A stretch of DNA of 57,783 nt from Candidatus Micrarchaeota archaeon (lineage in GTDB: Archaea > Micrarchaeota > Micrarchaeia > Anstonellales > Anstonellaceae), in assembly GCA_026414185.1 (NCBI GenBank), contig JAOAJL010000004.1:15966-73748 (forward strand), read 5' to 3'. Below the pieces are notes generated by a model that saw nothing but the letters and a program-made list of their open reading frames with translations, searched no databases and was not told the origin of the DNA. Position 1 is the first letter of the stretch. The number at the start of each line of letters is the position of its first letter. The position numbers were made by a program, and so were the translations under genes. Of the stretch, positions 16,119 to 57,733 are shown in pieces.

Positions 16119-17105
16119 ATGAAGGAACTTGTTTTGGCACTTTTGATTTCGGCGGCGCTGCTTTTGGCAGGGTGCGCGGGGGGAAGCCAGCAACCTCCCT
16201 CCCAGCAGCAACCGCAGCAGGAGACGCCGAAAGCACCTGCGCCGCAGGAGAAGAAAGAAACTTCGCCCCCCTCCCTGCCGCCTTCCGAGGGGGAAAGCAA
16301 GCCCGCGGAGCAGTCGCCTCAGCCTGCCGTTGAGTCTGATACTTGCACAGTCGGTTTCCAAAAGGATGCCTCAAATGTTTATCTTGTGATGGTAGATGCG
16401 CAGACCTCAAAGGAAATTACTGTGAGCTGCCCGACAGGCACGCCAGCGGAAAGGAGAGGCACCCTTTACTTCTGCGAAAGGCTGGACTTTCCCGGGCAGG
16501 CGGTGGCTTACATAGACGGAAAGAAGTGCGGGGCTGCCTCGTTTGTGCGCGGAGCGTATGAAACAAAGGGCAGCTCCAAGATATTCTGCACCATCTTTCT
16601 TTCGCAGACTAGGCTTACTGCCGGGCAGAGCACTGAAACAACCATACAGACCTCAACGGGAGAAAAGGAAGTCCTGCTTGAATACACCTGCGGAAGCGAG
16701 ATAAAAAGGCAGAAGCGAAGCGGGCTTGTGAGAGACGGGGCGATATGCACCTACAGCAAGCCCGGCACTTTTGTGGTGGAGGCAAAAATTGACGGGGAGG
16801 TATGCGACTCCAAGCTCATTGAGGTGTTCGCAAAGCCGAAAGACTGCTTTGTGCTGCCGACTGTGTTCTCAAAGGAAGGGGACTACTACGTGTATAAGGC
16901 GAAGGTTGCGGCGCGCGGCTACTCAGGCAACGACGAGATTTCCTACCGCTGCTACGACAACCTGTTTGGCATAAAGGTGCGCGACATACCAAACTCCACC
17001 GACTTCATAAAGGAAATTGAGTGCCGTGGCAAAAGCGGGCCTTTGAGCCAGCCTGTCAAGGTGCGCATCGGTGCGGATGAGTGCGGCTACATCCTGCCAC
17101 AGTGA
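16119..17105 (+). CDS. Putative lipoprotein with Pro/Gln/Glu linker and three 4-Cys beta-rich domains
   Basis: MKELVLALLISAALLLAGC lipobox-like signal; low-complexity linker; three repeats ending IDGKKC, IDGEVC and IGADEC. Confidence 0.75.
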   Translation: MKELVLALLISAALLLAGCAGGSQQPPSQQQPQQETPKAPAPQEKKETSPPSLPPSEGESKPAEQSPQPAVESDTCTVGFQKDASNVYLVMVDAQTSKEITVSCPTGTPAERRGTLYFCERLDFPGQAVAYIDGKKCGAASFVRGAYETKGSSKIFCTIFLSQTRLTAGQSTETTIQTSTGEKEVLLEYTCGSEIKRQKRSGLVRDGAICTYSKPGTFVVEAKIDGEVCDSKLIEVFAKPKDCFVLPTVFSKEGDYYVYKAKVAARGYSGNDEISYRCYDNLFGIKVRDIPNSTDFIKEIECRGKSGPLSQPVKVRIGADECGYILPQ

Positions 17106-17128: not shown

Positions 17129-17509
17129 ATGGGCAGCAAAATAAGGGGCATGAGGCTCTTGCTTGCCGTTGTTTTCTTGCTTGCCGCCGCCCAGCTTTCA
17201 TATTCTGGAAAGCCCGCTCCCCCACCCAGTCAGCAGGCTTCTCCTCTTCAAGATGTCAACGAGGCGGTATTTGCGCTTTGCAATGCCCTCAAATCCCTCC
17301 TTCCAGTAGTTGCGATGCTTATGATAGTGTTCGGAGCGGTGGTTTATGCCGCTGGGCAGATAATGGGGGCGGAAACAAGGGCAAGGGCAAACGTCTGGGC
17401 AACTGCGGCAGTCACGGGCGCGCTTGTTGCCATGCTGATTGCAACGGTCGCTCCAGCAGTTCTTTCAATGATGGTTCCTGGCGTTCAGTGCGACGTATTC
17501 GCTCCGTAA
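17129..17509 (+). CDS. VirB2/TrbC-like (T4SS-type) pilin, copy 1
   Basis: Signal-like N-terminus, short linker, then two hydrophobic helices joined by a basic loop (GAETRARANVW); 48/67 identical to the 57386 paralogue by manual alignment. Confidence 0.7.
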   Translation: MGSKIRGMRLLLAVVFLLAAAQLSYSGKPAPPPSQQASPLQDVNEAVFALCNALKSLLPVVAMLMIVFGAVVYAAGQIMGAETRARANVWATAAVTGALVAMLIATVAPAVLSMMVPGVQCDVFAP

Positions 17510-17530: not shown

Positions 17531-20155
17531 ATGGGTGTAGGAAGAAGCGAGATAGTTCTGATGGCAGTGGCGGCGATTCTTCTGCTTTCTGCGTTTTCGT
17601 TTGCAGAGCAATCCCAGCCGCTTTCCACTGCGGCAATAACCTCAAAGCCGACCTCCGCTGTTTTTGTGCCAAAGGAAACTTCGGCAAAAATAAGGAAGGC
17701 GGATGTTGACTGGAAAGATGCGAGGATAGGCTACAACAATACCAGCCGCAATTTCACGGTGGTGATAAGCGCCTATGCTTTCAACAATTCAACAGGCAGG
17801 CTCTACAAGACAGGGACTGCAAACAACACAAGCGTCATTGTGGTTTACCAGGGAAGCGCGGCTGACAGATACAACCTTGTTGTGATAACTGGACCGCTGA
17901 AAACTGGCAAGACTTACGGCTCCTCAGCCACTCTCAGACGCGGGGAGGAGGCTCCGATTGCTGTGGAGCCTGACAAGAACTATGTGGTTAGAAAATGGGA
18001 AGTTTTGATGGGCGAATGCACGGTGAAGAACCCCTATGCGCCTTCTACGGAAGTGGCTATTTTTTCCTCTGACAAAAGAACATGCGTGGTTGAAGCACAG
18101 ATGGGCAGCCTTCTTGACAGATACACGGGGGTTGCGACCTCTGGCGCTGAAGGAAAAGCGGTTTCCACCGGCACTGCGGGCGGAAAAGCAAATGCAGTCT
18201 GCACCGCTGCAAAGCCGGTATGCCCTGAAGGCACGCTTCTTGAAATTTCATCAGACCAGTTTGGTTGCCCGATTTACAACTGCAAAAAAACAGGGGCGGG
18301 TTGTCCAGTAGTAAAGCCCGACTGCCCACCAGGGAGCGTCTTGACGGAAGCTTACTCCCCTGACAAAGCGTCTGGCTGCGCAGCTTACGAATGCAGGAAG
18401 CTTTCCTGCCCGATAGCTTCAAGCGCCGCCCCTGGAGGCGTCAATATCTGGGAGGACTGCTCACTTTACGGCGGTGTTAAGCCCCCGCAGTGGATTGACG
18501 AGCTTGGATGCGTGCATGCCTGCCTGGAAACGAAGAAAACCTGCCCGACAAGCCAGCCGATACTTGAAGATTGCTCGGTCTTCGCAGGCGCGGTGCCTGC
18601 TGAGCCGTGGCTTGATGAAAATGGCTGCCTTCACAAGTGCAAAGGCTCTCCGCTTTGCACAGCAAAAAGCCAGCCTGTTTTGGTAGACTGCGGCAAAATC
18701 ACAACGACGGTAAGCTGGCTCAACCAAAAGACCGGATGCTGGGAGGCATGCAAGCCCCCCGCTGTCTGCCCGATTGATGGTGTTATCGCGGATATTGATT
18801 GCGGAACTTCGCCGGGCATTGGAATTCAGACTAAGTATGTTGATGAGCAGGGATGCGTGCATGTGTGCAAGCCTGCCGCCGCAGTATGCCCTGTGAAGGG
18901 CGGGATAATTTATGACATTGACTGCTCTTCAACTGCGGCTGCTGCAGTGGTGCCTGAATACACTGACAAGGACGGCTGCATCCACAAGTGCAAAAAGCAG
19001 ACCGTATCTGGCTGCGATACCAAAACCATAATTGAAGTGGACTGCTCTATGATGGGCAGGGTGGCAGCCCAGCCTTGGAAAGGAGAGGATGGCTGCCTCT
19101 ACAAATGCTCTTCCTCAAAATCCTGCCCGACGAAGGCTGTGAAGTATGTGGATTGCGCGGCTTATGGAGCGGTTATGCCCGAAAAGTGGGTTGGAGAGGA
19201 TGGGTGCACATATGCCTGCCTGGCAAAAGAGAAGAAATGCCCAAATGCGCAAGACCCGACGTATGTGGATTGCGCGGCAAGCACAAACCTGCCTTCGTAT
19301 ATTGATGAGAACGGCTGCACCTACCTCTGCAAAAAGACGCCTGTGTGCTCCCAGAAGGGAGTTCGGCTTGTGGACTGCTCTGCTGGAATTTCAGGAAAGG
19401 AGGGTGTTTGGGTTGGAGAGGATGGGTGCGCTTACGCATGCAAGAAAGCGCTTGTCTGTCTCTCCAGGGGTCTAAATTATGTGGACTGCCCGGACATCTT
19501 GCCCGAAGGATTCAGCTGGACTGATGATTCCGGATGCAAGTTTGCCTGCAGGAAAAAGGCGCTGTGTGCATCAGCTATGCCGGTGGTAAAGACGGACTGC
19601 CCGCCGACATCGCCGGCAAGCTATGTTGATGCCCAGATTGGTTGCACGGTGATTTGCAGGAATGTGGCGGAAGCTTTTGTCCCAAAAAACCAGACCAATC
19701 AAAGCAAGCCCGACTTGGTGATAAGCCAGATTTCAATCCCAGCCACAGTGACTGTCAATGTCCGCGTTTATGGAAGCATAACGACTAAAAACGTCGGTCA
19801 AGGGCATGCCGGCAATTCCACGACCGCCTATTACATAAACGGCGCTTTCGTCAACAGCATTCCAGTTCCGCCTTTGCCGCCAGGGGCCTCAAGCACGGGC
19901 AACGCAAGCTTCGTGTGCCTGCGCGCAGGGACTTATGCATTTAGCGCCAAGGCTGACTATTTGGGGGCAATCTTAGAGGAGAACGAGACCAACAACGAAA
20001 AGAACGTGACTTTCAGCTGCGTTCTTTCAAGCGGACAGGTGCAGACATCGCCTGTCGGCTCGGAAAGCATAGTTGCCTCCATGGCGGACACCTCAGGCAA
20101 TCTTTATGCCAAGGTGATGGGCATTTTAGGAGTGCATCTGGAAAGCTACAGGTAG
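17531..20155 (+). CDS. Secreted Cys-rich repeat protein with C-terminal CARDB-like domain, 874 aa
   Basis: Signal peptide; 13 four-Cys repeats; PDLVISQI...NVGQGHAG...ADYLGAILEENETNN CARDB-like motifs. Confidence 0.85.
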   Translation: MGVGRSEIVLMAVAAILLLSAFSFAEQSQPLSTAAITSKPTSAVFVPKETSAKIRKADVDWKDARIGYNNTSRNFTVVISAYAFNNSTGRLYKTGTANNTSVIVVYQGSAADRYNLVVITGPLKTGKTYGSSATLRRGEEAPIAVEPDKNYVVRKWEVLMGECTVKNPYAPSTEVAIFSSDKRTCVVEAQMGSLLDRYTGVATSGAEGKAVSTGTAGGKANAVCTAAKPVCPEGTLLEISSDQFGCPIYNCKKTGAGCPVVKPDCPPGSVLTEAYSPDKASGCAAYECRKLSCPIASSAAPGGVNIWEDCSLYGGVKPPQWIDELGCVHACLETKKTCPTSQPILEDCSVFAGAVPAEPWLDENGCLHKCKGSPLCTAKSQPVLVDCGKITTTVSWLNQKTGCWEACKPPAVCPIDGVIADIDCGTSPGIGIQTKYVDEQGCVHVCKPAAAVCPVKGGIIYDIDCSSTAAAAVVPEYTDKDGCIHKCKKQTVSGCDTKTIIEVDCSMMGRVAAQPWKGEDGCLYKCSSSKSCPTKAVKYVDCAAYGAVMPEKWVGEDGCTYACLAKEKKCPNAQDPTYVDCAASTNLPSYIDENGCTYLCKKTPVCSQKGVRLVDCSAGISGKEGVWVGEDGCAYACKKALVCLSRGLNYVDCPDILPEGFSWTDDSGCKFACRKKALCASAMPVVKTDCPPTSPASYVDAQIGCTVICRNVAEAFVPKNQTNQSKPDLVISQISIPATVTVNVRVYGSITTKNVGQGHAGNSTTAYYINGAFVNSIPVPPLPPGASSTGNASFVCLRAGTYAFSAKADYLGAILEENETNNEKNVTFSCVLSSGQVQTSPVGSESIVASMADTSGNLYAKVMGILGVHLESYR
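18200..19657 (+). repeat. 13 tandem protein repeats, consensus C-x(5-16)-(D)C-x(10-17)-GC-x3/4-C
   Basis: Units such as CPTKAVKYVDCAAYGAVMPEKWVGEDGCTYAC; the nucleotide block TGGGTTGGAGAGGATGGGTGC recurs in two units. Confidence 0.9.
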
Positions 20156-23841: not shown

Positions 23842-24951
23842 TCAGCCAAGAAGGTCCAAGTCAAGCTCCGCACCCACCTCGGATGGCGATGGCGCCTGCT
23901 GGAAGAAATTCCTCAGCTCATACTGGGGAAACTTGGCGCCTGCAAGCACGCAGAGCACCTTTATGGAAGATTTCTTTGCCGACTTCTCTATCCTTGCGCC
24001 CCATATTATGTGTGAGGCAGGGTCTATCCGCTTGCTCACCTCGCTTACTATAAGCTCCGCCTCTTTCAGCGTCATATCCTCTCCGCCTGTGACGTTGATG
24101 AGGGCGCGGTTTGCCGATGAAACATCCACGTCAAGCAGGGGCGAATTCATCGCGGTATCCACCGCTATCAGCGCCCTCTGGTCGGGCTTTGCCTCCACTG
24201 AGGCTTCGCCCAAGCCTACAACCGCGCACCCTGCGCCGGAGAGTATCGTGCGCAGGTCTGCGAAATCCAGATTGACAAGCCCTGCCTTCGTCACAAGCTC
24301 GGCAATTCCCTTGACCGCGCCCGCAAGAACCTCGTCAGAGACCTTGAATGCGGTGTTCAGCGGCAGGTCAGGGACGATGGAAAGCAGCTTGTCGTTTGGA
24401 ATGACTATCACCGTGTCGGCGTGCTTTTTGAGCTTGTCCAAGCCCTCAAGCGCATTTTGCATCCTGACTTTTCCTTCCGAGGCAAAGGGGAGCGTCACGA
24501 CTGCGATTGTTAGGGCGCCTGCGGATTTTGCCTGCTCGGCGATTATGTGGGCGGAGCCCGTGCCTGTCCCGCCACCAAGCCCGCAGGTTATGAAGACCAT
24601 CATTGCGTCGGCTATTGCGGATTTTATCTCCTCTGCGGATTCCTTTGCCGCCGCCTCGCCAAGCGAAGGGTTGCTTCCCGCCCCCATGCCGCGAGTGGTC
24701 TTTTTGCCAAGCAGAATCTTCCTGTCAGCGCGCATTTTCACAAGATGCTGCACGTCGGTATTCATTGCTATCAGCTTGACCCCCTCTATCTGCATTTCAT
24801 ACATCCTGGTCATGGTGTTGCATCCGCTTCCGCCGGCTCCGACAACGTATATCTTCGGCCTGCTCTGCTCTATGAATTTCAAAAGCTCGGCATCTTCGGG
24901 AGAGACTGCCACCCCTTCGGGCAGTTCGGAGTCAATGCTGTCAAGCCCCAT
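23842..24951 (-). CDS. ftsZ: Cell division protein FtsZ (FtsZ1-like)
   Basis: VGAGGSGCN, GAGSNP, GLGGGTGTG, NLDFAD T7 loop; next to secE-spt5. Confidence 0.97.
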   Translation of the reverse strand: MGLDSIDSELPEGVAVSPEDAELLKFIEQSRPKIYVVGAGGSGCNTMTRMYEMQIEGVKLIAMNTDVQHLVKMRADRKILLGKKTTRGMGAGSNPSLGEAAAKESAEEIKSAIADAMMVFITCGLGGGTGTGSAHIIAEQAKSAGALTIAVVTLPFASEGKVRMQNALEGLDKLKKHADTVIVIPNDKLLSIVPDLPLNTAFKVSDEVLAGAVKGIAELVTKAGLVNLDFADLRTILSGAGCAVVGLGEASVEAKPDQRALIAVDTAMNSPLLDVDVSSANRALINVTGGEDMTLKEAELIVSEVSKRIDPASHIIWGARIEKSAKKSSIKVLCVLAGAKFPQYELRNFFQQAPSPSEVGAELDLDLLG

Positions 24952-25068
24952 AACCACACATCTTCGCTTTCCTTGCACATGCTAAGGGTTTTTTTATTTC
25001 ACGTCGGATATGCGTGGGAAAATTTATAATTGGCGTGGATTGCGGGCGGCTGCAGCCGCCTGCGCCTG

Positions 25069-28864: not shown

Positions 28865-29674
28865 ATGGTGGATGCGAAGTATTTTGCTTACGGTGCAGGT
28901 GCGCTTGCCCTCTTGGGCGCGATGGGCTGCTTTGTGGGGCAGGGCAATGCGATAGTTTCGTTCATATCCGGCCTGCTTTGCCTCATAGGAGCCATAGGCG
29001 CGGTGGCGCTTTTCAAATACGGCTATCTTCTCATCCCCCTTCTTACCCAGAGAGCGAAGATAGTGCAGATAATGGAGGGCGGCTACGAGATTCCGCCTTC
29101 AAATGACGTCATTCTCAAAAATGTCGGCGGGGTTTATTACGCAAGCAAATTCTTGGGGGTCAGGATTTTTGAGTCCGCCTCAGAAAAATCAGTGGAGGAA
29201 AACGTGGTCTATTCGGAATACTTTGAGCGCGCCATATCATCAGTAAAATACGTGACGAAGTTCGCCATAATGGTCTACATGAAGGACATAACGGACTACC
29301 GCAACCGGATAGAGACCAAGCATGCTGAGGCGCAGCTTAGGCTTGCGCGCGAGAGGGACAAGCCGGACCCTGATGTGCTCAAGCTTGACAGGTTTGAAAA
29401 GGAGGTTGCAATGTGGGAGGCGCAGATAAACAAGCTCACCCGCGGGATAAAGCCGATGGGCTGCGTCTCATACGTGATGACGACTGCTGTGGGCGTCAGC
29501 AAGGAAGCGGCGATGGCAGCCGCAACTGCGCAGGCAAATGAGCTGAAAGCCACCATCGCCAATGCGCTCAATGTCCAGGTTGAGCTGCTCAGCGGCGATG
29601 AGATGCTGCGCTGCTTCCAGTGGGAAACCGCCATTCCGCCCACGCCGCAGGAGCTTGAGCAGGCGCTGCTGTAG
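28865..29674 (+). CDS. Two-TM protein with TraC/VirB4 N-terminal-like domain
   Basis: N-terminal TM hairpin; VILKNVGGVYYASKFLGV..SVEENVVYSEYFERAISSV..DITDYRNRI; ends ANELKATIANALNVQVELLSGDEML. Confidence 0.6.
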   Translation: MVDAKYFAYGAGALALLGAMGCFVGQGNAIVSFISGLLCLIGAIGAVALFKYGYLLIPLLTQRAKIVQIMEGGYEIPPSNDVILKNVGGVYYASKFLGVRIFESASEKSVEENVVYSEYFERAISSVKYVTKFAIMVYMKDITDYRNRIETKHAEAQLRLARERDKPDPDVLKLDRFEKEVAMWEAQINKLTRGIKPMGCVSYVMTTAVGVSKEAAMAAATAQANELKATIANALNVQVELLSGDEMLRCFQWETAIPPTPQELEQALL

Positions 29675-29720: not shown

Positions 29721-31331
29721 ATGGGAAGGCTGAAGCTTTCGGAGCTTGACAACATTGACCTTGCGAGGCGCAACATATTCGTCAGACCGCCCGAGCCGCC
29801 GGATGACGTGCTGATGTCCGACCCGACAAACTCAATCTACATCGGAAGGACAAAGATATTCCACGTCCCGTTTTACTGGACCTATCAGAAGACCACCAAC
29901 CCGCATATCTGCGTGGTGGGGATAACGGGTTCTGGGAAATCCTACTTTGTGAAAACCTTCCTCACCCGAGCAAGCTATGTGTGGGGGACAAACGCGTTCA
30001 TAATAGACTGGGCTGGGGAGTACAAGGACTGGGTGAAGCAGGTGGGTGGAAAGGTCATCTCATTGGGACGAGGCTCTTCAATCAACCTGCTTGACACGGC
30101 TGGCATGAAGCCCAATGACCGAATAAAGCAGGTTATGAGGACCCTGGACATGCTGACGGACATAGGGCGCTACCCAGAGCAGCGCCGCCTGACCGAGCTT
30201 GCTATTGAAAAGGCGTATGTCAACAACAAATTCAAGCTTGACTCAAAACTCCAGGTTGACGGGCTGGGAAGGCCGCTGCGCCCGCCCACCCTCAAAGACG
30301 TCCAGAAGATACTTGAGGACATGAGCGAGGCTGGAACCTATGAGTTCCCCGCCGAGCTTGAAAATGCGATTTACCGCATAAGGCAGTTCACACGCGAAGG
30401 CGAGGACTTCTTCGCCCAGCAATCCACCATAGACCTTGAAAAGCTGACCAAGGCAGGGCTTGTGGACCTTGACATCTCCGGCCTTCCAGATGAGACTTTC
30501 AGGGGGCTTGCGGCGCTTTCCATGCTCCAGTTCATAAAGGAGAAGATGAGGGAGGAGGGCTGGTCCTCAACAAAAGGGCTCAAGCTTCTTGTAGTGCTTG
30601 ACGAAGCCTGGAAGGTTGCCAAAGACGACAATTCCGATGCGGTGATGATTGTGCGCGAGGGAAGGAAATACCAGTTCGGGCTTATTGTGGCGTCGCAGAA
30701 CCCAACGGACATCTCTGAGGCGATTTTCTCAAACGTGGGAACCACCTTCATCCTGCGCGTGAAGTTTGAGAGGTTTTTGGACTATCTGCAGTCCACGCTG
30801 AATTTCTCCGACTACATGAGGGAGGGCATCGCCAAGCTTGGAGTCGGACAGGCGGCGGTGAACATGGCTTTCCAGACAAATGTGGATTTTCCGGAAACGT
30901 TCTTGCTTGAGAAGATAGACGGAGAGGAGCCGATGCAGGAGTTCTTCCTTGACTTGGACAAGGTGCTGACGAAAGAGGAGCTTGCCATGGAGGGCGCTGT
31001 GCGCTCGGCAAGCTTTGAAAAAGACGAGCTCAAAAAGAAGCTGAGAAGCTATGGCATGGGGGAGGAGCAGTCGGATGAGATAGTCGGGCTGTTTGCAAAG
31101 AAAGGAAGGCGGATGGAAATCTCCGCCTTTGTGGTGCTGCTTTCGCGCTATGGCATAGCCCGCGTGAATATCTCAAGCTTCCTGAAAGATTTGGGACTTG
31201 ACGACAACTTGGTGATAAACGTGCTTGCGAAGGCAGATGAGCTTGAATTGGAGCTTTCCGATACGGACATAACGGAATACATACTGCAGGCAGAGGCTGC
31301 TGCGGCTGGGCAGGCGGAAGGCGCCTCTTGA
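29721..31331 (+). CDS. VirB4/HerA/TraG-like (DUF87) P-loop ATPase with helical C-terminal domain, 536 aa
   Basis: Walker A GITGSGKS, IIDWAGEY, Walker B VVLDEAW, REGRKYQFGLIVASQNP; start moved from 29562 to ATG 29721. Confidence 0.88.
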   Translation: MGRLKLSELDNIDLARRNIFVRPPEPPDDVLMSDPTNSIYIGRTKIFHVPFYWTYQKTTNPHICVVGITGSGKSYFVKTFLTRASYVWGTNAFIIDWAGEYKDWVKQVGGKVISLGRGSSINLLDTAGMKPNDRIKQVMRTLDMLTDIGRYPEQRRLTELAIEKAYVNNKFKLDSKLQVDGLGRPLRPPTLKDVQKILEDMSEAGTYEFPAELENAIYRIRQFTREGEDFFAQQSTIDLEKLTKAGLVDLDISGLPDETFRGLAALSMLQFIKEKMREEGWSSTKGLKLLVVLDEAWKVAKDDNSDAVMIVREGRKYQFGLIVASQNPTDISEAIFSNVGTTFILRVKFERFLDYLQSTLNFSDYMREGIAKLGVGQAAVNMAFQTNVDFPETFLLEKIDGEEPMQEFFLDLDKVLTKEELAMEGAVRSASFEKDELKKKLRSYGMGEEQSDEIVGLFAKKGRRMEISAFVVLLSRYGIARVNISSFLKDLGLDDNLVINVLAKADELELELSDTDITEYILQAEAAAAGQAEGAS

Positions 31332-31356: not shown

Positions 31357-31656
31357 ATGGCAAAGACGCTTTTCTTTGAAAAGGAGGAGCTTGGGCGCAA
31401 GCTGCGCACCTGCGGCTTGGATGAGCTGCATGTCGCAGAAATCAGCAGGGTATTTGAGAAAAACAACAAGCACATAGATGTGGTGAGCTTTGTCATCATG
31501 CTTGAGCGGTATGGGGTGCAGAGGGCGGACATCTCCTCTTTTTTGCACGACATCGGGGTGGACGAGCCCACGCTCATCAACATATTCTCAAAGGCGGACT
31601 TCACAAGGCTTGGCATGGGAAACCGGGAGATTACGCAGGTTGTGTTGGCTGACTGA
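31357..31656 (+). CDS. Stand-alone paralogue of the ATPase C-terminal domain, 99 aa
   Basis: 34/75 identical, ungapped, to the ATPase segment FEKDEL...KAD (manual count). Confidence 0.88.
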   Translation: MAKTLFFEKEELGRKLRTCGLDELHVAEISRVFEKNNKHIDVVSFVIMLERYGVQRADISSFLHDIGVDEPTLINIFSKADFTRLGMGNREITQVVLAD

Positions 31657-31681
31657 AAATTGTTGGATGGAGGGATTTGGC

Positions 31682-32086
31682 ATGGCGAAGGTCTGTATAA
31701 TATGCGAAAAGGAGACGGATGGCAGCGCGGTGGCGGATGACTTTGTCATCCGGACAATAAGGGCTGTCAAGCAGAGGTTCGGGATTGCGAAGAACAACAT
31801 CCTTGTGGTCTGCTCCTCATGCATGGAGGAGCACCGCAAAAGGCGCGAAAGGTATGAGCGGAACCTTGTGATGCACGTCTTAGTTGCCGCAATCATCCTC
31901 TTTGCCTTTGTGCTTTTGCCGGTTTTCACCACCGGCTTTTCGGTCTCGGCGCTGGTTCTGGGCATCCTGCTTGCCGCAATCATCATCGGGCTTTCAATAT
32001 TCTCCCATCATCCCAAGCTTGCGCCCGAAACGCAAAAGCCCAAGCCCGAGGAAAAGAAAGGACAGCGCGGCAGGAAAAGGAAGTGA
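31682..32086 (+). CDS. Zn-finger (CxxC...CxxC) two-TM membrane protein with basic tail
   Basis: CIICEK and CSSCMEE, two hydrophobic helices, KKGQRGRKRK C-terminus. Confidence 0.78.
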   Translation: MAKVCIICEKETDGSAVADDFVIRTIRAVKQRFGIAKNNILVVCSSCMEEHRKRRERYERNLVMHVLVAAIILFAFVLLPVFTTGFSVSALVLGILLAAIIIGLSIFSHHPKLAPETQKPKPEEKKGQRGRKRK

Positions 32087-32092
32087 TTTTGA

Positions 32093-32881
32093 ATGGTGGA
32101 AATAAAGCTGCCTGAGGGCATGAGGCAGGCGGGGGGGCAAAAGCCGCCCCCTGCCCCACCGCAGCCGCAACCTACATCCCCCATTGTTGGCGGGTTTCGC
32201 ATAGCGGCAAAAAGAAAATGCACCATTGAGGAGCTTTCGCAGAGGTTTGCGGAGCTTTCCTTCCTTCAGCTGACCGTTGAAAAGGATGCGCTTGCCGCGC
32301 TCAACGTGGAGTCGCGCGACATCCAGAAAAACCCCTATCTTTTTTCAATCATCTATTTCAAGCCCGATTGCGTTGAGGCGCTTTATACCTGCCTGCCAAA
32401 CATGAGCCCGAAAAAGCGCCGCATAGACGTGCTGCGCCAGTTCCTCAACCTTCTGACGATAGTGGAGGACTGCTACCAAGTGGAGATGAAGCAGATTTAC
32501 CAGCTTCTTGAAGCCTCAGTGGCGGACATGACTGAATATGTTTCGCTTGACTACGACCGGCTTTTTTCCCTCTATGACAATCTCAAAAGCGAGGTTGCAG
32601 CTCTGCAAAAGAAGGTAAAGGACCTCACGGATGGAAACGCTGCGCTTTCAAAAGAAAACTACGAGCTGAAAAGCAAAAATGACGAGCTTGTGCTTAAAAT
32701 CCGCGGGCTTGAAACCTTCAGCGACTCGGTGCTTGCCCTAAAAATACAGGAGTGGCTTTCAGAACACAAGGGCGAGATAAACATAGCCGATTTCTCCAAG
32801 GTTTACAACGTGCCTGAAACGCGCGTTGAGCAGATGCTCAACAAGCTTGTGACAGAGGGTTATCTTGAAATTAAGGGCTGA
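32093..32881 (+). CDS. Hypothetical protein: Pro-rich N-terminus, alpha/beta domain, coiled coil, C-terminal winged-helix-like domain
   Basis: Heptad-rich LKSEVAALQKKVKDLTDGNAALSKENYELK; C-terminal EINIADFSKVYNVPETRVEQMLNKLVTEGYL. Confidence 0.75.
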   Translation: MVEIKLPEGMRQAGGQKPPPAPPQPQPTSPIVGGFRIAAKRKCTIEELSQRFAELSFLQLTVEKDALAALNVESRDIQKNPYLFSIIYFKPDCVEALYTCLPNMSPKKRRIDVLRQFLNLLTIVEDCYQVEMKQIYQLLEASVADMTEYVSLDYDRLFSLYDNLKSEVAALQKKVKDLTDGNAALSKENYELKSKNDELVLKIRGLETFSDSVLALKIQEWLSEHKGEINIADFSKVYNVPETRVEQMLNKLVTEGYLEIKG

Positions 32882-32904
32882 GGCTGCTCTTTGCGGGTTT
32901 GACT

Positions 32905-35505
32905 ATGGCTGAGGAAAGAGGCGGGCTTGCCCGGCTGAAAATAGCAAAAAAGGCATATGTCTTTGATGTGCGCAAGAAGTATTCTTTGAGCAGAACCTTC
33001 CAGCTGAAAAAAAGCCCCCAAACCCCGCAGGAGCAGCTGAAAGAAGCCGTCGGCAGCCTTTTTGAAAGAAAGAAAAAGCCGGAAGGGCAGCAGGAGGCTG
33101 CGCAGCCCGTTTCGCCTTCCGTTTCACCCCCCGATGCGGTTGCCTCTGCCATAAAAACAGCCGCCTTTGTCGCACTGCTGTTCGTTGTCGGAGGGTTCAT
33201 TTTTTTGTGGATGCAGCTTTCTGCGGCAGGCACGGGCGGCTCCCCGCCCCAAAGACCTGAAGTGTTCTCTGGCTCCTACGACTACTTTGTTTCTGATGCG
33301 GAAATCCTATCAGTGGCGCAGGAGGACAGGATAGGGCGCTCCTTTTTTTTGCTTGTTGAATATTGGGCTGAAAACCTAAGCAGCCTCAATTTCAGCGCTT
33401 CCATCTACCCGACGGCGCCGACGACCCAGGTCTTCCTTCTTGACTATGCGCGGGAAGGCGACGACTGCTACCCTGCCTTCAGGAAGAGCCTTTTTGAGGG
33501 GATGCCGCAGTCAGGCTTTGCGATAAGCGAAATTGAGGTATGGGAGCTTGCCGCGCTGCCGGAAGGGGCGACTGTGATTGTCCCGACCGGATATCTGCCG
33601 CAGGAACTTTTGGGAATCGGCTCAAACTTTGATTATGCGGGGCTTTTGAACAGGGGCGTGAACATAATCTACATCGGCTACCCCTTTGACAGCCTTGCGA
33701 TAGACAGGAGAGGCCAGACTGTTCCGGTGAAGCACTACGCGCTTTCATTTACGAAGGTGCGCGCAGACTCCACGGATGGCTTTCGGCTCTATGACCCGCA
33801 GTATGTCGCAAGCCCGCAGGCGACAGGGGATAGCCGTCTTTTTTCAGGGCATCAGCTTTACGGCTCTGTCTCAGTGGTAAAGGGCGCCAAGGGGGCGATG
33901 CTTTTTTTGCCGCAGACGCTTGATGGCGGATGGCGCGGGGACGGGAAGGCGGCTGCCGAGGACATCATAAGGCTTGTCCGCGAAGCCCTTTGGATGAGCC
34001 CTCTTGCGCAGACGACGCTTCCGGCTGAAGTTGTCGGGGAAGGGAAGGAGCGCAGGATTTCCATCTTCAGCCCGCCTTTTGATGCGGATGGAGGCTATGT
34101 TGAACTTTCCGCGGATGCCAAGGACATGAACGGGATTGGAAGAAGAGGCGTCCAGACCGTAAAGCTATTCAAGACCCAGCGGGGGGAGATGATTCCGCGC
34201 GACCCAAAGACAGTTCCGTTTTACCTCTCAGGGCAGAAGACGAGACTGAACATAAAGCTTGCAGAGCCAACATCCACCCCTGTTGAGCTTTTCATAAGGA
34301 TGTACAAGGATGGAAACCTCTTGCAGGAAGAGAAGCTGGAGCTTGGGCTTACAAATCCGCAGACTGAAAAACCCAAGGATTTCCAGGTCAACGCAGAGCC
34401 AGGAAGATATGTTGTTCATGTGGAGGACAGGGCAGGCAGGGTTTATGCGGCTTGCCAGCTTGACGTCATAGACTTGGACATTGAGCTTTTGGACAGGCCG
34501 GACTGGGGCAGGGGGAAATTCAGGTTTTTCCTTTCTGCCGCAGGGGAGACTGTTTCGCCGCGTTTCTTGACGGTTTCCCTTGACGGGAAGGGGGAGAAGA
34601 AGTATTCGCCAGGCGATTATACCTACGAGGACAAAAAGACGCTTTTGCTCTATGAGCATCCCTATGAGATAAAGCCTGGGAACCACACATTCACTTTCAG
34701 CGCAGGAGAATGGAGCAAGCAGTTTGTCGCAACATACAGACCATCAAGAAACTTTTGGGACAACCCCCTTGTGCTATTCCTCGGCTTCATCTCGCTGGCT
34801 GTCTTTGGCATAGGCTACTTCCTGCGCAAGCCTGAAAAGATGCGCTACGGGCTGGACATACCGGACTTTCCTCCTCTCTCAACCATAAAAATACCGGTCA
34901 AAAGGCAGACTGTCTTGGATATCTTTGAAAGCGTGAATGCAAGCTACGCATGGCAGTACATGCCGCTTAGGCTTGATGAGCTGAAAAATGGGTTCAGACG
35001 GCTTACTTATAACGGGAAGCCGATTTTGGTCGGCGACTTTAACCTTGAACGGATACTCTCCCGCCTTCGCGATGAGGGGTTGGTGAAAGAGGAGCTTGGC
35101 TACTGGGGCAAAACGCAATGGGAAAAGGAAAGCGGCAGGAGCATCAGGTACCTTGCCATGTACAGGATAATGCGCAACGTGTTTGTGAATAACGCGCTGA
35201 GGTTCTCCAAGCTCGGGGCGATGCCCGACTGTGATGTGAAAGTCATAGCTGGCAAGGACGAAATTTACTTCCATATAATGGAGCAGCCGTATGAGCCCAT
35301 AATCCACAAGGCGCTTGCCACCGCAAAGAAAGGGACAACCATGATGGTTTTCAAAAATGAAGAGGAGCGCGACTCCTTTGCCAATTCTCTGACTTCCTCC
35401 TCCAAGCTTGCGGTTGCCCTGAAAATGGAAATCCAAAACGGCAACATCCTCCTGGTGCAGGTGAAAAACGAGATTTCCGCCTTCCTCAAGCAGATTATAA
35501 AGTAA
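32905..35505 (+). CDS. Large two-TM membrane protein with big extracytoplasmic region and cytoplasmic C-terminal domain, 866 aa
   Basis: TM TAAFVALLFVVGGFIFLW, about 510 aa beta-rich region, TM PLVLFLGFISLAVFGIGYFL, then wHTH-like LERILSRLRDEGLVKEELGYWG. Confidence 0.8.
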   Translation: MAEERGGLARLKIAKKAYVFDVRKKYSLSRTFQLKKSPQTPQEQLKEAVGSLFERKKKPEGQQEAAQPVSPSVSPPDAVASAIKTAAFVALLFVVGGFIFLWMQLSAAGTGGSPPQRPEVFSGSYDYFVSDAEILSVAQEDRIGRSFFLLVEYWAENLSSLNFSASIYPTAPTTQVFLLDYAREGDDCYPAFRKSLFEGMPQSGFAISEIEVWELAALPEGATVIVPTGYLPQELLGIGSNFDYAGLLNRGVNIIYIGYPFDSLAIDRRGQTVPVKHYALSFTKVRADSTDGFRLYDPQYVASPQATGDSRLFSGHQLYGSVSVVKGAKGAMLFLPQTLDGGWRGDGKAAAEDIIRLVREALWMSPLAQTTLPAEVVGEGKERRISIFSPPFDADGGYVELSADAKDMNGIGRRGVQTVKLFKTQRGEMIPRDPKTVPFYLSGQKTRLNIKLAEPTSTPVELFIRMYKDGNLLQEEKLELGLTNPQTEKPKDFQVNAEPGRYVVHVEDRAGRVYAACQLDVIDLDIELLDRPDWGRGKFRFFLSAAGETVSPRFLTVSLDGKGEKKYSPGDYTYEDKKTLLLYEHPYEIKPGNHTFTFSAGEWSKQFVATYRPSRNFWDNPLVLFLGFISLAVFGIGYFLRKPEKMRYGLDIPDFPPLSTIKIPVKRQTVLDIFESVNASYAWQYMPLRLDELKNGFRRLTYNGKPILVGDFNLERILSRLRDEGLVKEELGYWGKTQWEKESGRSIRYLAMYRIMRNVFVNNALRFSKLGAMPDCDVKVIAGKDEIYFHIMEQPYEPIIHKALATAKKGTTMMVFKNEEERDSFANSLTSSSKLAVALKMEIQNGNILLVQVKNEISAFLKQIIK

Positions 35506-54858: not shown

Positions 54859-55815
54859 CTATCTTTTCCCAAGGCGATATGGCTCTGATATGCCCGTATA
54901 GATGCAGATTGCCTCAAGCCTCTTTTCGTAGCCCTCTTCTATCCTTGCCCCGTAGATGACGTTGGCGTCCTCGGCAACGTTTTCTGTGAGAAGCTCGCCT
55001 GCTCTGTTGGCATCGCCTAAAAGAAGGTCGGGGCCGCCGGTCAGGTGGACAAGCACCCCCTTTGCGCCCGAGATGTCAATGTCCAAAAGGCGGTTTTTCA
55101 GCACGGCGTTTGGAAGCTCCTCAACCCTGTCATAGCCGGATGCCTCGCCAACGCAGATTGCGGATATCCCGCCGTTTTGCGCAACTGCCTTGAGGTCCAT
55201 GTAGTCAAGATTGAGAAGCGATGGCTCAAGCAAGGTCTTGGAAATGCCGCCTATCGCCTTTGCAAAAAGCTCGTCAAGCACCTCAAAGGACTTCTCAATC
55301 GGCAGCCTGCCTGCGTAATCTACCAGCCTATTGTTGTCAATAAGCACCACCGTGTCGGCGTGCTTCTTCATCTCCGAAATCCCCTCGCGCGCCTTCCCCA
55401 TCCTGCCCCGCTCTATCGCGAATGGGTAGGTGCAAAAAGCAATCGTGATGGCTCCTTTTTCTCTTGCGATGCGGGAAATCACCGGAGTTGCGCCCGTTCC
55501 TGTCCCGCCGCCCATGCCGCATGCCAGAAAGACGATGTCCTTCCCATCCAGAAGCTCGGCTATCGCCTTCCTGCTTGACTCTGCACACTTTGCCGCAACC
55601 TCAGGATAGCCGCCTGCGCCAAGCCCCTTTGTCACCGAGTAGCCAAGAAGGCATTTTTTCGCTCCATCTCCGACGAGGTTGAGGTGCTTTTTGTCGGTGT
55701 TGAACGCAATCAGCTCTGCCTTTGAAACTCCCATGCGAAGCAGGCGGTTTATTGTGTTGCAGCCTGCGCCGCCAACGCCGCATACTGCAATTGAAGGCTT
55801 GCCCTCCTCGTCCAT
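54859..55815 (-). CDS. ftsZ: Second FtsZ (FtsZ2-like), 318 aa
   Basis: [31 protein letters not shown]. Confidence 0.93.
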
Positions 55816-56220: not shown

Positions 56221-56901
56221 TTAGAAGAAGTAGCCGCTTCCCATAGAGCCAAGCATCGCTCTCCCAAACAGCGCTAAGGCAAAAGCCATGGCAATCAGCG
56301 CCAAAATTGCGACCACAAGCGGCAGGAGGACCACTACCAACGCCTTTATGTCGGAAATGCCGTGCACTTCTTTTATCAGCAAGTAAAAGCAGTAGATGGA
56401 GTAAAGGGAAATCAGAACTATGACAAGCCAGAAGAGAATGCCTATGCATGGAATTCCTGAAAGCACTGTGAAGGGAAATGCAACCAGGGCATAGCCGCCC
56501 AAGATGAGGCTTAAGGCGAGGGTTTGCTCCATGAAGCTGCCTTTGCCCCCGAGTATCTTTGCCAATATCCAGTGGATTGCTGAGGCGATAAAACCGCCCA
56601 CCAGATAAAAAAGCGGGACCAGCGCAATGCCTAAAAGCCTGATGCCAAATGCCAGTGGGTTCAGCCCGAACAGTCCCATAAGAAAGGATGCCAGAAAACT
56701 CAGCAAGCCAGCAAGCACAAGATGGATCGCTATCGGGACTGCGCTTGCCTCTTTCTTGTTTTGGGAATAGCCTTCAAGCGGATGGAAAAACGTATACACC
56801 CAAGCCCTCGGCTGCGGAATTGGGATGGCAGATGCTACCTGCATGTATATCCTTTCCACAGAAGCAAAAGCAGATTCCCCTTCTTTTTTCCCAGCCACCA
56901 A
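56221..56901 (-). CDS. Yip1-domain membrane protein
   Basis: FFHPLEGY start motif, LAKILGGKGSF, LIKEVHGIS; about 5 TM helices; GTG start with GAGGTGG RBS. Confidence 0.75.
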   Translation of the reverse strand: MVAGKKEGESAFASVERIYMQVASAIPIPQPRAWVYTFFHPLEGYSQNKKEASAVPIAIHLVLAGLLSFLASFLMGLFGLNPLAFGIRLLGIALVPLFYLVGGFIASAIHWILAKILGGKGSFMEQTLALSLILGGYALVAFPFTVLSGIPCIGILFWLVIVLISLYSIYCFYLLIKEVHGISDIKALVVVLLPLVVAILALIAMAFALALFGRAMLGSMGSGYFF

Positions 56902-57226: not shown

Positions 57227-57312
57227 GCTGGGGTCGCATAACCCGGTATTGCGGCAGGTTGCTAACCTGTTGGGGGGAAACCCCCGTGCGAGTTCAAATC
57301 TCGCCCCCGGCA
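57227..57312 (+). tRNA. tRNA-Ser (GCT), intronless, long variable arm
   Basis: GCTGGGG/CCCCGGC acceptor stem; GCAGG-TTGCTAA-CCTGT anticodon arm; GGGGG-GAAA-CCCCC-type variable arm; GCGAG-TTCAAAT-CTCGC T arm. Confidence 0.95.
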
Positions 57313-57385: not shown

Positions 57386-57733
57386 ATGGGAAAGGCTGCG
57401 GCGGCTGTGCTTTTGCTTGTTTCCTTGGCTTTTGCCAGCACTCCCCAATCAACGATGGTGCTTTCAAGCGTCCATTATGCCATGTCCGCGTTTTGCAAGT
57501 CCCTAGTCAGCTTGCTTCCTGTTGCGGCGATGATGATGATCGTGCTGGCAGGAGTGATTTACGCCGCTGGGCAGATGATGGGAGCGGAAACAAGGGCAAG
57601 GGCAAACGTGTGGGCAACTGCGGCGCTGACAGGGGCGCTCATTGGGATACTGATATATGTGGTTGCGCCTGCGGTTATCGGCATGATGCTTTATCCTGAC
57701 AACCCAGAACAGATTAAGCTTAACTGCCAATGA
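57386..57733 (+). CDS. VirB2/TrbC-like pilin, copy 2
   Basis: Signal peptide, then FCKSLVSLLPVAAMMMIVLAGVIYAAGQMMGAETRARANVWATAALTGALIG; C-terminal Cys. Confidence 0.7.
   Translation: MGKAAAAVLLLVSLAFASTPQSTMVLSSVHYAMSAFCKSLVSLLPVAAMMMIVLAGVIYAAGQMMGAETRARANVWATAALTGALIGILIYVVAPAVIGMMLYPDNPEQIKLNCQ

Follow-up and report, generated by a model that had tools for sequence, protein, structure and literature searches.

Predicted VirB2-like pilins with a conserved cysteine pair form a multi-copy family across the Micrarchaeota

Introduction

DPANN archaea rely on contact with a host, and few of the molecules behind this contact have been identified. A stretch of 57,783 nucleotides from a Micrarchaeota (DPANN) genome, hereafter the window (C29:15966-73748), encodes two small membrane proteins that a preliminary description, made from the letters alone, took for a dispersed pair of VirB2/TrbC-like pilins with a shared loop and a possible disulfide bond. 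What are these proteins, and what could they build? The genome has 0.96 Mb in 35 contigs and is 87% complete. The window carries archaeal housekeeping genes (eRF1, an S-layer protein, two FtsZ, HMG-CoA reductase, and AglB), and those homologues of the genes under study that carry an organism name are from Candidatus Micrarchaeota/Anstonellaceae. Our answer, to which we give a probability of about 0.6, is that they are pilins of the conjugative type and not type IV pilins: VirB2/TedC-like subunits exported by Sec, closed by a disulfide, and assembled by an ATPase. In its main points, the TrbC/VirB2-like identity is supported by profile matches across the family, by a hairpin model, and by the gene order beside an ATPase operon.

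Two paralogous genes share a basic turn

The two genes are the following:
17129..17509, + strand: putative pilin paralogue 1, 126 amino acids (aa) (open reading frame; PF18895 match, E = 4e-5; AlphaFold2 model; 389 homologues)
57386..57733, + strand: putative pilin paralogue 2, 115 aa (open reading frame; BLASTP match to paralogue 1)

Both reading frames lie where the preliminary description had placed them, some 40 kb apart (40,257 bases between their starts) and on the same strand. BLASTP aligns the two proteins with 52 identities in 82 positions (63%, E = 1e-33), which is compatible with the 48 of 67 shared core residues counted before. The loop QxMGAETRARANVW is common to both and differs between them by a single residue (QIMGAETRARANVW at 17357-17398 in gene 1, QMMGAETRARANVW at 57572-57613 in gene 2). 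Its near-invariance had been said to extend to the DNA. This is correct, if modest: identity reaches 88% over the 26-codon core and falls to 55% and 63% in the helices on its two sides. At positions with identical residues, the codons are also identical in 18 of 23 cases in the core and in 9 of 17 and 5 of 12 cases in the flanks. Gene conversion as the source of this identity was considered and set aside, the codon comparison giving it marginal support.

Read from the sequence, both N-termini are ordinary Sec-type signals, with K/R in the n-region and a hydrophobic core, and neither has the class III signal of prepilins, in agreement with the preliminary description. Gene 1 would be cut at AAA/Q or SYS/G (signal at about aa 1-21 or 1-26) and gene 2 after SLAFA/S; we infer cleavage in both from these AxA-type sites. 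In gene 1, the signal is followed by an amphipathic/transmembrane (TM) helix 1 (aa 39-78) and by helix 2 (aa 81-115). The AlphaFold2 model made with an alignment (predicted local distance difference test, pLDDT, 84) has a signal helix at 5-26 and hairpin helices at these same positions, with R84 and R86 in the turn; confidence is low in the tail (pLDDT 56 in the last block). Sequences and model thus give the layout of VirB2-type pilins: a Sec signal with predicted cleavage, two hydrophobic helices, a short basic turn, and both ends outside. The N-side Cys of these proteins (ALC, AFC, and QLC in the copies of this genome) could be mistaken for a lipobox. We rejected this reading, since a lipobox would have a different -1 residue and about 25 residues separate the Cys from the hydrophobic core of the signal.

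Profile matches and gene order point to VirB2-like pilins

The top-ranked Pfam match of gene 1 is PF18895 (T4SS_pilin; E = 4e-5, 24.0-25.2 bits). We counted Pfam matches at E≤0.01 over 101 members of the family, from which we also built a profile to search genomes and PDB sequences. PF18895 is matched by 61 members (best E = 3e-6) and PF04956 (TrbC/VirB2) by 51 (best E = 2e-6), and every other Pfam family by six at most. PF18895 matches occur in 40 of 41 relatives, in 11 of them above the gathering score of that family (26.6 bits). Some homologues are already labelled PF18895 or PF04956 in precomputed annotation, and the weak NCBIfam matches of the window genes include TrwL.

Gene order supports the VirB2-like reading more strongly than do the tests of fold or profile. 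The window contains the following operon, between its two pilin genes:
28865..29674, + strand: two-TM protein, 269 aa from the ATG at 28865; first operon gene, always ahead of the ATPase
29721..31331, + strand: VirB4/CedB-like P-loop ATPase (Pfam DUF87, AAA_10, P-loop_TraG)
31490..35505, + strand: small membrane protein, coiled-coil/winged helix-turn-helix protein, and 868-aa double-anchored membrane protein, in a conserved order

Four genomes from three further families (G039, G200, G189, and G170) have one or two pilin genes immediately ahead of this operon (TM277-ATPase-p198-coiled-coil-mem868) and on its strand. These pilins carry the same Cys pair and the same GAETRAR turn (GAEMRSR in G170). 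The window pilins lie further away, 12 kb and 26 kb from the ATPase, and the distance is about 10-12 kb in relatives at the family level. Among the genomes listed, 20 lack the ATPase and 19 of these also lack the pilin. The two-TM protein keeps its place beside the ATPase in the corresponding loci of the three other families (L009-L012; 33-54% identity) and matches no Pfam or NCBIfam family. The three downstream genes also keep their order and strand in these loci, with no informative family matches.

The best NCBIfam models of the ATPase are CedD (E = 3e-21) and CedB (4e-21), followed by VirB4_plasma (2e-18), TraC (5e-16), and HerA (3e-13), all below the equivalog cut-offs. Its matches among PDB sequences are to HerA and VirB4. 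We do not take HerA for its best label, since that model is outscored by those of CedD, CedB, VirB4, and TraC and the neighbours are membrane proteins and not NurA, Mre11, or Rad50. An orthologue (56-87% identity) is found in 177 of the 201 Micrarchaeota genomes that make up our phylum sample, of which 68 belong to the same order as the source genome. Such conservation is unusual for a secretion ATPase and resembles that of a core housekeeping gene. Two further paralogues are encoded in the genome at E≤1e-20. The ATPase is the probable dislocase and assembly motor of the pilins.

A multi-copy family with a constant core and variable ends

A word-indexed search returned 389 homologues, and an exhaustive search 345 cluster representatives at E≤0.001. 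With the 101-member profile, the family was found in 145 of the 201 genomes, among them every one of the 68 from the same order. Genomes have one to nine copies, frequently in tandem arrays of two to four. When tandem copies are compared in relatives, the core is identical and the mature N-terminus and C-terminal tail differ; the GAETRAR turn is unchanged across the 120 closest homologues. This is an undescribed, phylum-wide, multi-copy family, kin to conjugation pilins.

The paralogy of the window genes therefore stands, but they are more than a dispersed pair. At least four Cys-type copies and one divergent Cys-less copy are encoded in the genome. A third full copy, with QLC and a terminal IDC, is at C11:26658-26990 on the minus strand. 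At the window's end (C29:73749-73960), a 99-N scaffold gap starts 15 bases past gene 2, and beyond it, outside the window, lies the 3' part of another copy, ending LQMMLPNNVNLVDKCR. Its first 61 visible bases equal bases 231-291 of gene 2 exactly, after which the tail is wholly divergent. This copy is the product of a recent tandem duplication in which the tail was exchanged, or else it possibly belongs to another strain and was wrongly placed here in scaffolding. The divergent copy is an 80-aa hairpin (MALLDTLTGIQNALLQIGPVV; C22:96081-96300, minus strand), leaderless, without Cys, and in a housekeeping context; its best Pfam match is T4SS_pilin (E = 6e-4). It has the features of a second, CedA1-style unprocessed pilin-like gene.

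In some genomes, mostly of the same genus (G203, G211, G213, and G136), PF18895 matches far exceed the gathering score and reach 45 bits; the open reading frames have about 100 aa and often come in tandem pairs. They may represent another VirB2-like type, closer to the canonical one and perhaps carried by integrated elements.

A Cys pair predicted to form a disulfide

Each window protein has one Cys on either side of the turn. In gene 1, Cys51 (17279-17281) is in helix 1 and Cys121 (17489-17491) in the C-terminal tail; in gene 2, the residues are Cys37 (57494-57496) and Cys114 (57725-57727). The N-side Cys had been described as lying just before helix 1. The residue is there, but its position is inside the helix, in the N-terminal amphipathic part of 39-78. 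We analysed 251 complete hairpins from the word-indexed and exhaustive searches. Both Cys are present in 238 and neither in 8, which bears out the conservation of the pair expected earlier. Only one is present in 5, of which at least two are explained by truncation at the N-terminus (P0029) or by loss of an internal part (P0200). The N-side Cys stands exactly 29 residues ahead of GAETRAR in 118 of the 120 closest homologues. The C-side Cys lies 35-50 residues past the motif; in 103 of the 165 short proteins, it is the last or penultimate residue. Most Cys-less hairpins are fused ahead of a polytopic membrane domain.

The numbers of Cys on the two sides appear to covary. A CC doublet occurs at -29/-28 in ten proteins, nine of which have CxC or CxxC at the C-terminus as well; a naive Fisher test on every protein with two N-side Cys gives p = 4e-8. 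A phylogeny-aware contrast is underpowered, with four supported independent pairs, about two of them concordant and almost never one in the opposite sense (p ~0.5). Joint loss, for its part, reflects few events because it is concentrated in one subfamily. The covariation is thus suggestive, and the near-universal keeping of both Cys is the firmer fact.

Both Cys would be extracytoplasmic once the signal is removed, and the two Arg of the turn fit the positive-inside rule. By an estimate from helix geometry, about 28 residues separate Cys51 from the turn; helix 2 extends for about 35 residues, with Cys121 another 6 coil residues beyond it. Given these lengths, the tail could fold back the remaining ~10 Å to Cys51. 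The genome also has genes for three DsbA-like proteins (Thioredoxin_4), each carrying a lipobox signal or a membrane anchor; the active site is CPYC in two and CPYT in one:
C11:38681-39151: DsbA-like gene
C22:72505-72906: DsbA-like gene
C22:29301-29762: DsbA-like gene

They are likely the oxidative-folding machinery of the many Cys-rich secreted proteins encoded in the genome. Since both Cys are outside, the tail could reach Cys51, and exported DsbA-like proteins are present, a disulfide is plausible, and judging by the sequences the pair probably forms one, within a subunit or between subunits.

The second arrangement, in which the N-helix Cys of one subunit is joined to the tail Cys of the next and the filament becomes a covalent polymer, would account equally well for the conservation and for the joint presence or absence of the two residues. 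It would also suit a C-side Cys carried on a low-confidence tail of variable length while the N-side Cys is fixed. In polyprotein homologues (below), however, each repeat holds one N-side and one C-side Cys, so that bonds within repeats are also allowed. We regard bonding between subunits as rather unlikely, and retain closure within the hairpin in the scheme proposed below.

Fused relatives, a polytopic family, and the alternatives to a pilin

Several results weigh against a disulfide-closed conjugative pilin. Neither window gene reaches the PF18895 gathering score (24.0-25.2 bits for gene 1 and 10.3 for gene 2). The expected profile match to VirB2-like pilins thus holds for gene 1 by its E-value and for the family, and fails at the Pfam cut-off; gene 2 by itself gives no significant match. 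We treat the window genes as a remote subfamily and not as curated Pfam members, because they are individually sub-threshold while the matches of the family are consistent. The search of PDB sequences with the family profile gave no significant match. Its top match was TrwL (the VirB2 of R388; E = 0.12), and the others, proteasome beta-7 chains, were discarded as chance likeness to the string 'GAxTRA'. The expected structural match did not materialise: the model is the hairpin that was foreseen, but Foldseek found nothing significant in the PDB (best E = 1.5) and no solved pilin among the top 50 matches listed, in a search where a two-helix hairpin is a weak query and the signal helix was kept in the model. 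The genome has no PF03135 (the N-domain of VirB4) and no VKOR.

Could the genes then belong to an unrelated two-TM family, with pilin matches due to composition and Cys that bind metal, are acylated, or stay reduced in an anoxic habitat? The sub-threshold matches of the window genes, the negative Foldseek search, and the missing VKOR would fit such a family, and TM hairpins do draw spurious matches (DUF3007, Yip1, MreD). Spurious matches would hardly concentrate on two related pilin families, which are matched by 51-61% of the members, against 6% at most for any other. Nor would they account for pilin genes at the head of the VirB4/CedB-like operon in three other families, or for the co-occurrence of pilin and ATPase across the phylum; the exported DsbA-like proteins, the many Cys-rich secreted proteins, and the location of both Cys outside the cell speak against metal-binding, acylated, or reduced Cys. 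We therefore consider an unrelated family very improbable.

A further difficulty comes from fused relatives. Some homologues extend past the C-side Cys into Cys-rich or Ig-like (immunoglobulin-like) extracellular domains, for a total length of up to 1,276 aa, and domains of this size are difficult to accommodate in a homopolymeric tube. P0153 (1,071 aa) and P0165 (632 aa) have an N-terminal Ig-like region followed by seven and four tandem pilin-like hairpins, respectively, each with its own N-side and C-side Cys and with the turn PGQTRG in place of GAETRAR; they are possibly pilin polyproteins. In P0188 and P0222, two Cys-less hairpins are fused ahead of a polytopic membrane domain. The same domain occurs in six tandem paralogues (301-524 aa) beside SecD/SecF, on the minus strand at C32:33500-40700 (L006:6512-13697). 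This polytopic family is Micrarchaeota-wide, has the motif FLPxGLxLRxFPPTRxAG, and gives a confident AlphaFold2 model (pLDDT 90, predicted template modelling score 0.81). It matches no Pfam or NCBIfam family.

For CedA, which is VirB6-like, homology of the N-terminus to CedA1, a pilin, has been reported (Beltran et al. 2023, PMC9905601). The fusions P0188 and P0222 share this layout, which makes the polytopic family a candidate VirB6/CedA analogue by analogy of architecture. No homology to VirB6/CedA could be demonstrated, the family having neither a PDB fold (best E = 0.29) nor a sequence match, and this also weighs against the conjugative-type reading. Divergent from the polytopic array, at C32:40645-49498 (L007:646-9496, + strand), are a gene for a 2,206-aa protein without a Pfam family and then one for a lipobox protein of 750 aa whose match to transglycosylase SLT is faint (E = 0.008).

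These fusions fit hairpins that never polymerise and are instead membrane-resident subunits or anchors of a VirB4-like translocon, resembling VirB3 or the N-terminus of VirB6/CedA, with their ends and Cys-rich domains on display. The two hairpins joined to a polytopic domain, the homologues with 300-1,200 aa of extracellular Cys-rich or Ig-like domain, the polyproteins of 4-7 hairpins, the homology between CedA and CedA1 (PMC9905601), and the missing structural match to solved pilins can all be read in this way. Small size, a Sec signal, tandem copies, a constant core with variable tails, and best matches to pilin families are the pattern of a pilin, and we judge a translocon anchor unlikely. 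It departs from the pilin reading in the last step only, because VirB2 pilins are themselves membrane-resident before assembly.

Neighbours of the pilin genes

Pilin gene 1 lies between two genes for secreted proteins:
16119..17105, + strand: 328-aa lipobox-type secreted Cys-containing protein, directly upstream of pilin 1 (faint lipoprotein-signal matches)
17531..20155, + strand: 874-aa secreted Cys-rich repeat protein (CARDB, E = 1.4e-19), 22 bases downstream of pilin 1

The 874-aa protein may be tied to pilin 1 in function. We rejected the idea that it is a free-standing counterpart of the Cys-rich extensions fused to pilins (best BLASTP E against P0167, 0.32). Pilin gene 2 is preceded by a tRNA-Ser(GCT) gene (57227-57312) and, about 500 bases upstream and in divergent orientation, by a Yip1-domain membrane protein gene (56221-56901, minus strand). 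The two FtsZ paralogues of the window are both on the minus strand (23842-24978, 378 aa; 54859-55815, 318 aa).

A proposed mechanism

In the following scheme for the conjugative-type pilin, the removal of the signal, the disulfide, the reading of the turn by the motor, the filament, and its cargo are inferred. The precursor would be inserted by Sec and its signal peptide removed by signal peptidase I, leaving a hairpin with both ends outside the cell and the invariant GAETRARANVW turn at the cytoplasmic face. Exported DsbA-like oxidoreductases would then join the Cys of the N-terminal helix to that of the flexible tail and close the hairpin covalently, a role taken in TrbC (RP4) and TrhA (R27) by head-to-tail peptide cyclisation. 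The VirB4/CedB-like module (28.8-35.5 kb) would recognise the turn, pull subunits out of the membrane, and build a tube with the turn along the lumen and with exposed, variable N- and C-termini. The paralogues, alike in the core but not in the tails, would supply alternative surfaces, and relatives with large Cys-rich C-terminal extensions may act as adhesin-bearing subunits.

A broader proposal can be made, tentatively. The system may be a conjugative-type tube encoded on the chromosome as part of the Micrarchaeota core genome, built of disulfide-closed VirB2-like subunits with interchangeable tails. It might serve as a conduit or grappling device at the contact with the host, taking up DNA or other material, in place of a type IV pilus. 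It would then correspond, in archaea, to the essential VirB2 arrays of the candidate phyla radiation (CPR) and be a candidate for the filaments at Micrarchaeota-host contacts.

Comparison with known systems

In cultivated Micrarchaeota and relatives, cryo-electron tomography has revealed filaments or nanotubes at host contacts, which were attributed to the host and whose protein identity was left unresolved (PMC8975820, PMC11329633). A tube-forming candidate encoded by the symbiont is of interest for this reason. With its phylum-wide pilins tied to a highly conserved VirB4/CedB-like motor, the family is a concrete candidate for the molecules of host contact, and it extends conjugative-type pilins, derived from type IV secretion systems (T4SS), from Thermoproteota to DPANN, in parallel to the arrays of CPR. 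Our searches of a paper library turned up nothing that links Micrarchaeota to VirB2, VirB4, CedB, or type IV secretion. A DPANN host, an invariant turn, a conserved Cys pair, and no recognisable VirB6 set the family apart from Ted/Ced, CPR, and TrbC/TrhA.

The closest archaeal parallel in layout is TedC, from the Ted system of Pyrobaculum calidifontis, whose Sec signal is cut by signal peptidase I and which has a VirB4-like partner (PMC9905601). Both are archaeal, chromosomal and off mobile elements, and both have a Sec-type signal, a helical hairpin, and a VirB4-like ATPase encoded near or far. They have no detectable sequence similarity: our family profile does not retrieve TedC at E≤10. The Micrarchaeota family also differs from TedC in its multiple copies and variable tails, its DPANN symbiont host, its invariant GAETRAR turn, and in that no VirB6/TedA homologue was shown. 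The words 'cysteine' and 'disulfide' do not occur in the text of PMC9905601. In the Ced system of Sulfolobales (CedA1/CedB/CedD), the likeness lies in the ATPase, for which CedD and CedB are the best NCBIfam models, and in a relaxase-less, chromosomal, T4SS-derived apparatus (relaxases were not searched for in the Micrarchaeota genome). The ATPase scores 75 bits, whereas the equivalog cut-offs are 600-700, and CedA1 is exported without processing (PMC9905601), unlike the Micrarchaeota pilins with their predicted cleavable signals.

The arrays of Patescibacteria/CPR resemble the family in organisation. According to the published account (PMC12102498), these genomes have 2-11 divergent VirB2-like pilin genes (PF18895/PF04956), in tandem or near virB4, for which surface variation was proposed as the reason. 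An ultrasmall, episymbiotic cell, a T4SS that lacks a relaxase, and pilin-gene arrays would be common to both. The CPR systems are bacterial, their VirB4 clusters with the MPF-FATA type, and their copies average 25% identity, whereas the Micrarchaeota core is near-invariant; a Cys pair is not mentioned in the passages of that account that we read.

The last comparison concerns the closure of the hairpin. In TrbC (RP4) and TrhA (R27 H-pilus), the ends are joined by a peptide bond after C-terminal trimming by the TraF/TrhF peptidase, and closure of TrhA is required for pilus biogenesis (PMC12037004, PMC13434634). By analogy, the ends of a VirB2-type hairpin would also be covalently joined in Micrarchaeota, through a predicted side-chain disulfide from an internal helix Cys to a tail Cys and not through the backbone. 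If the Cys pair does form this bond, it would be a second, chemically distinct closure of the VirB2-type hairpin beside the cyclisation of TrbC and TrhA, and would inform why closure matters in pilus assembly.

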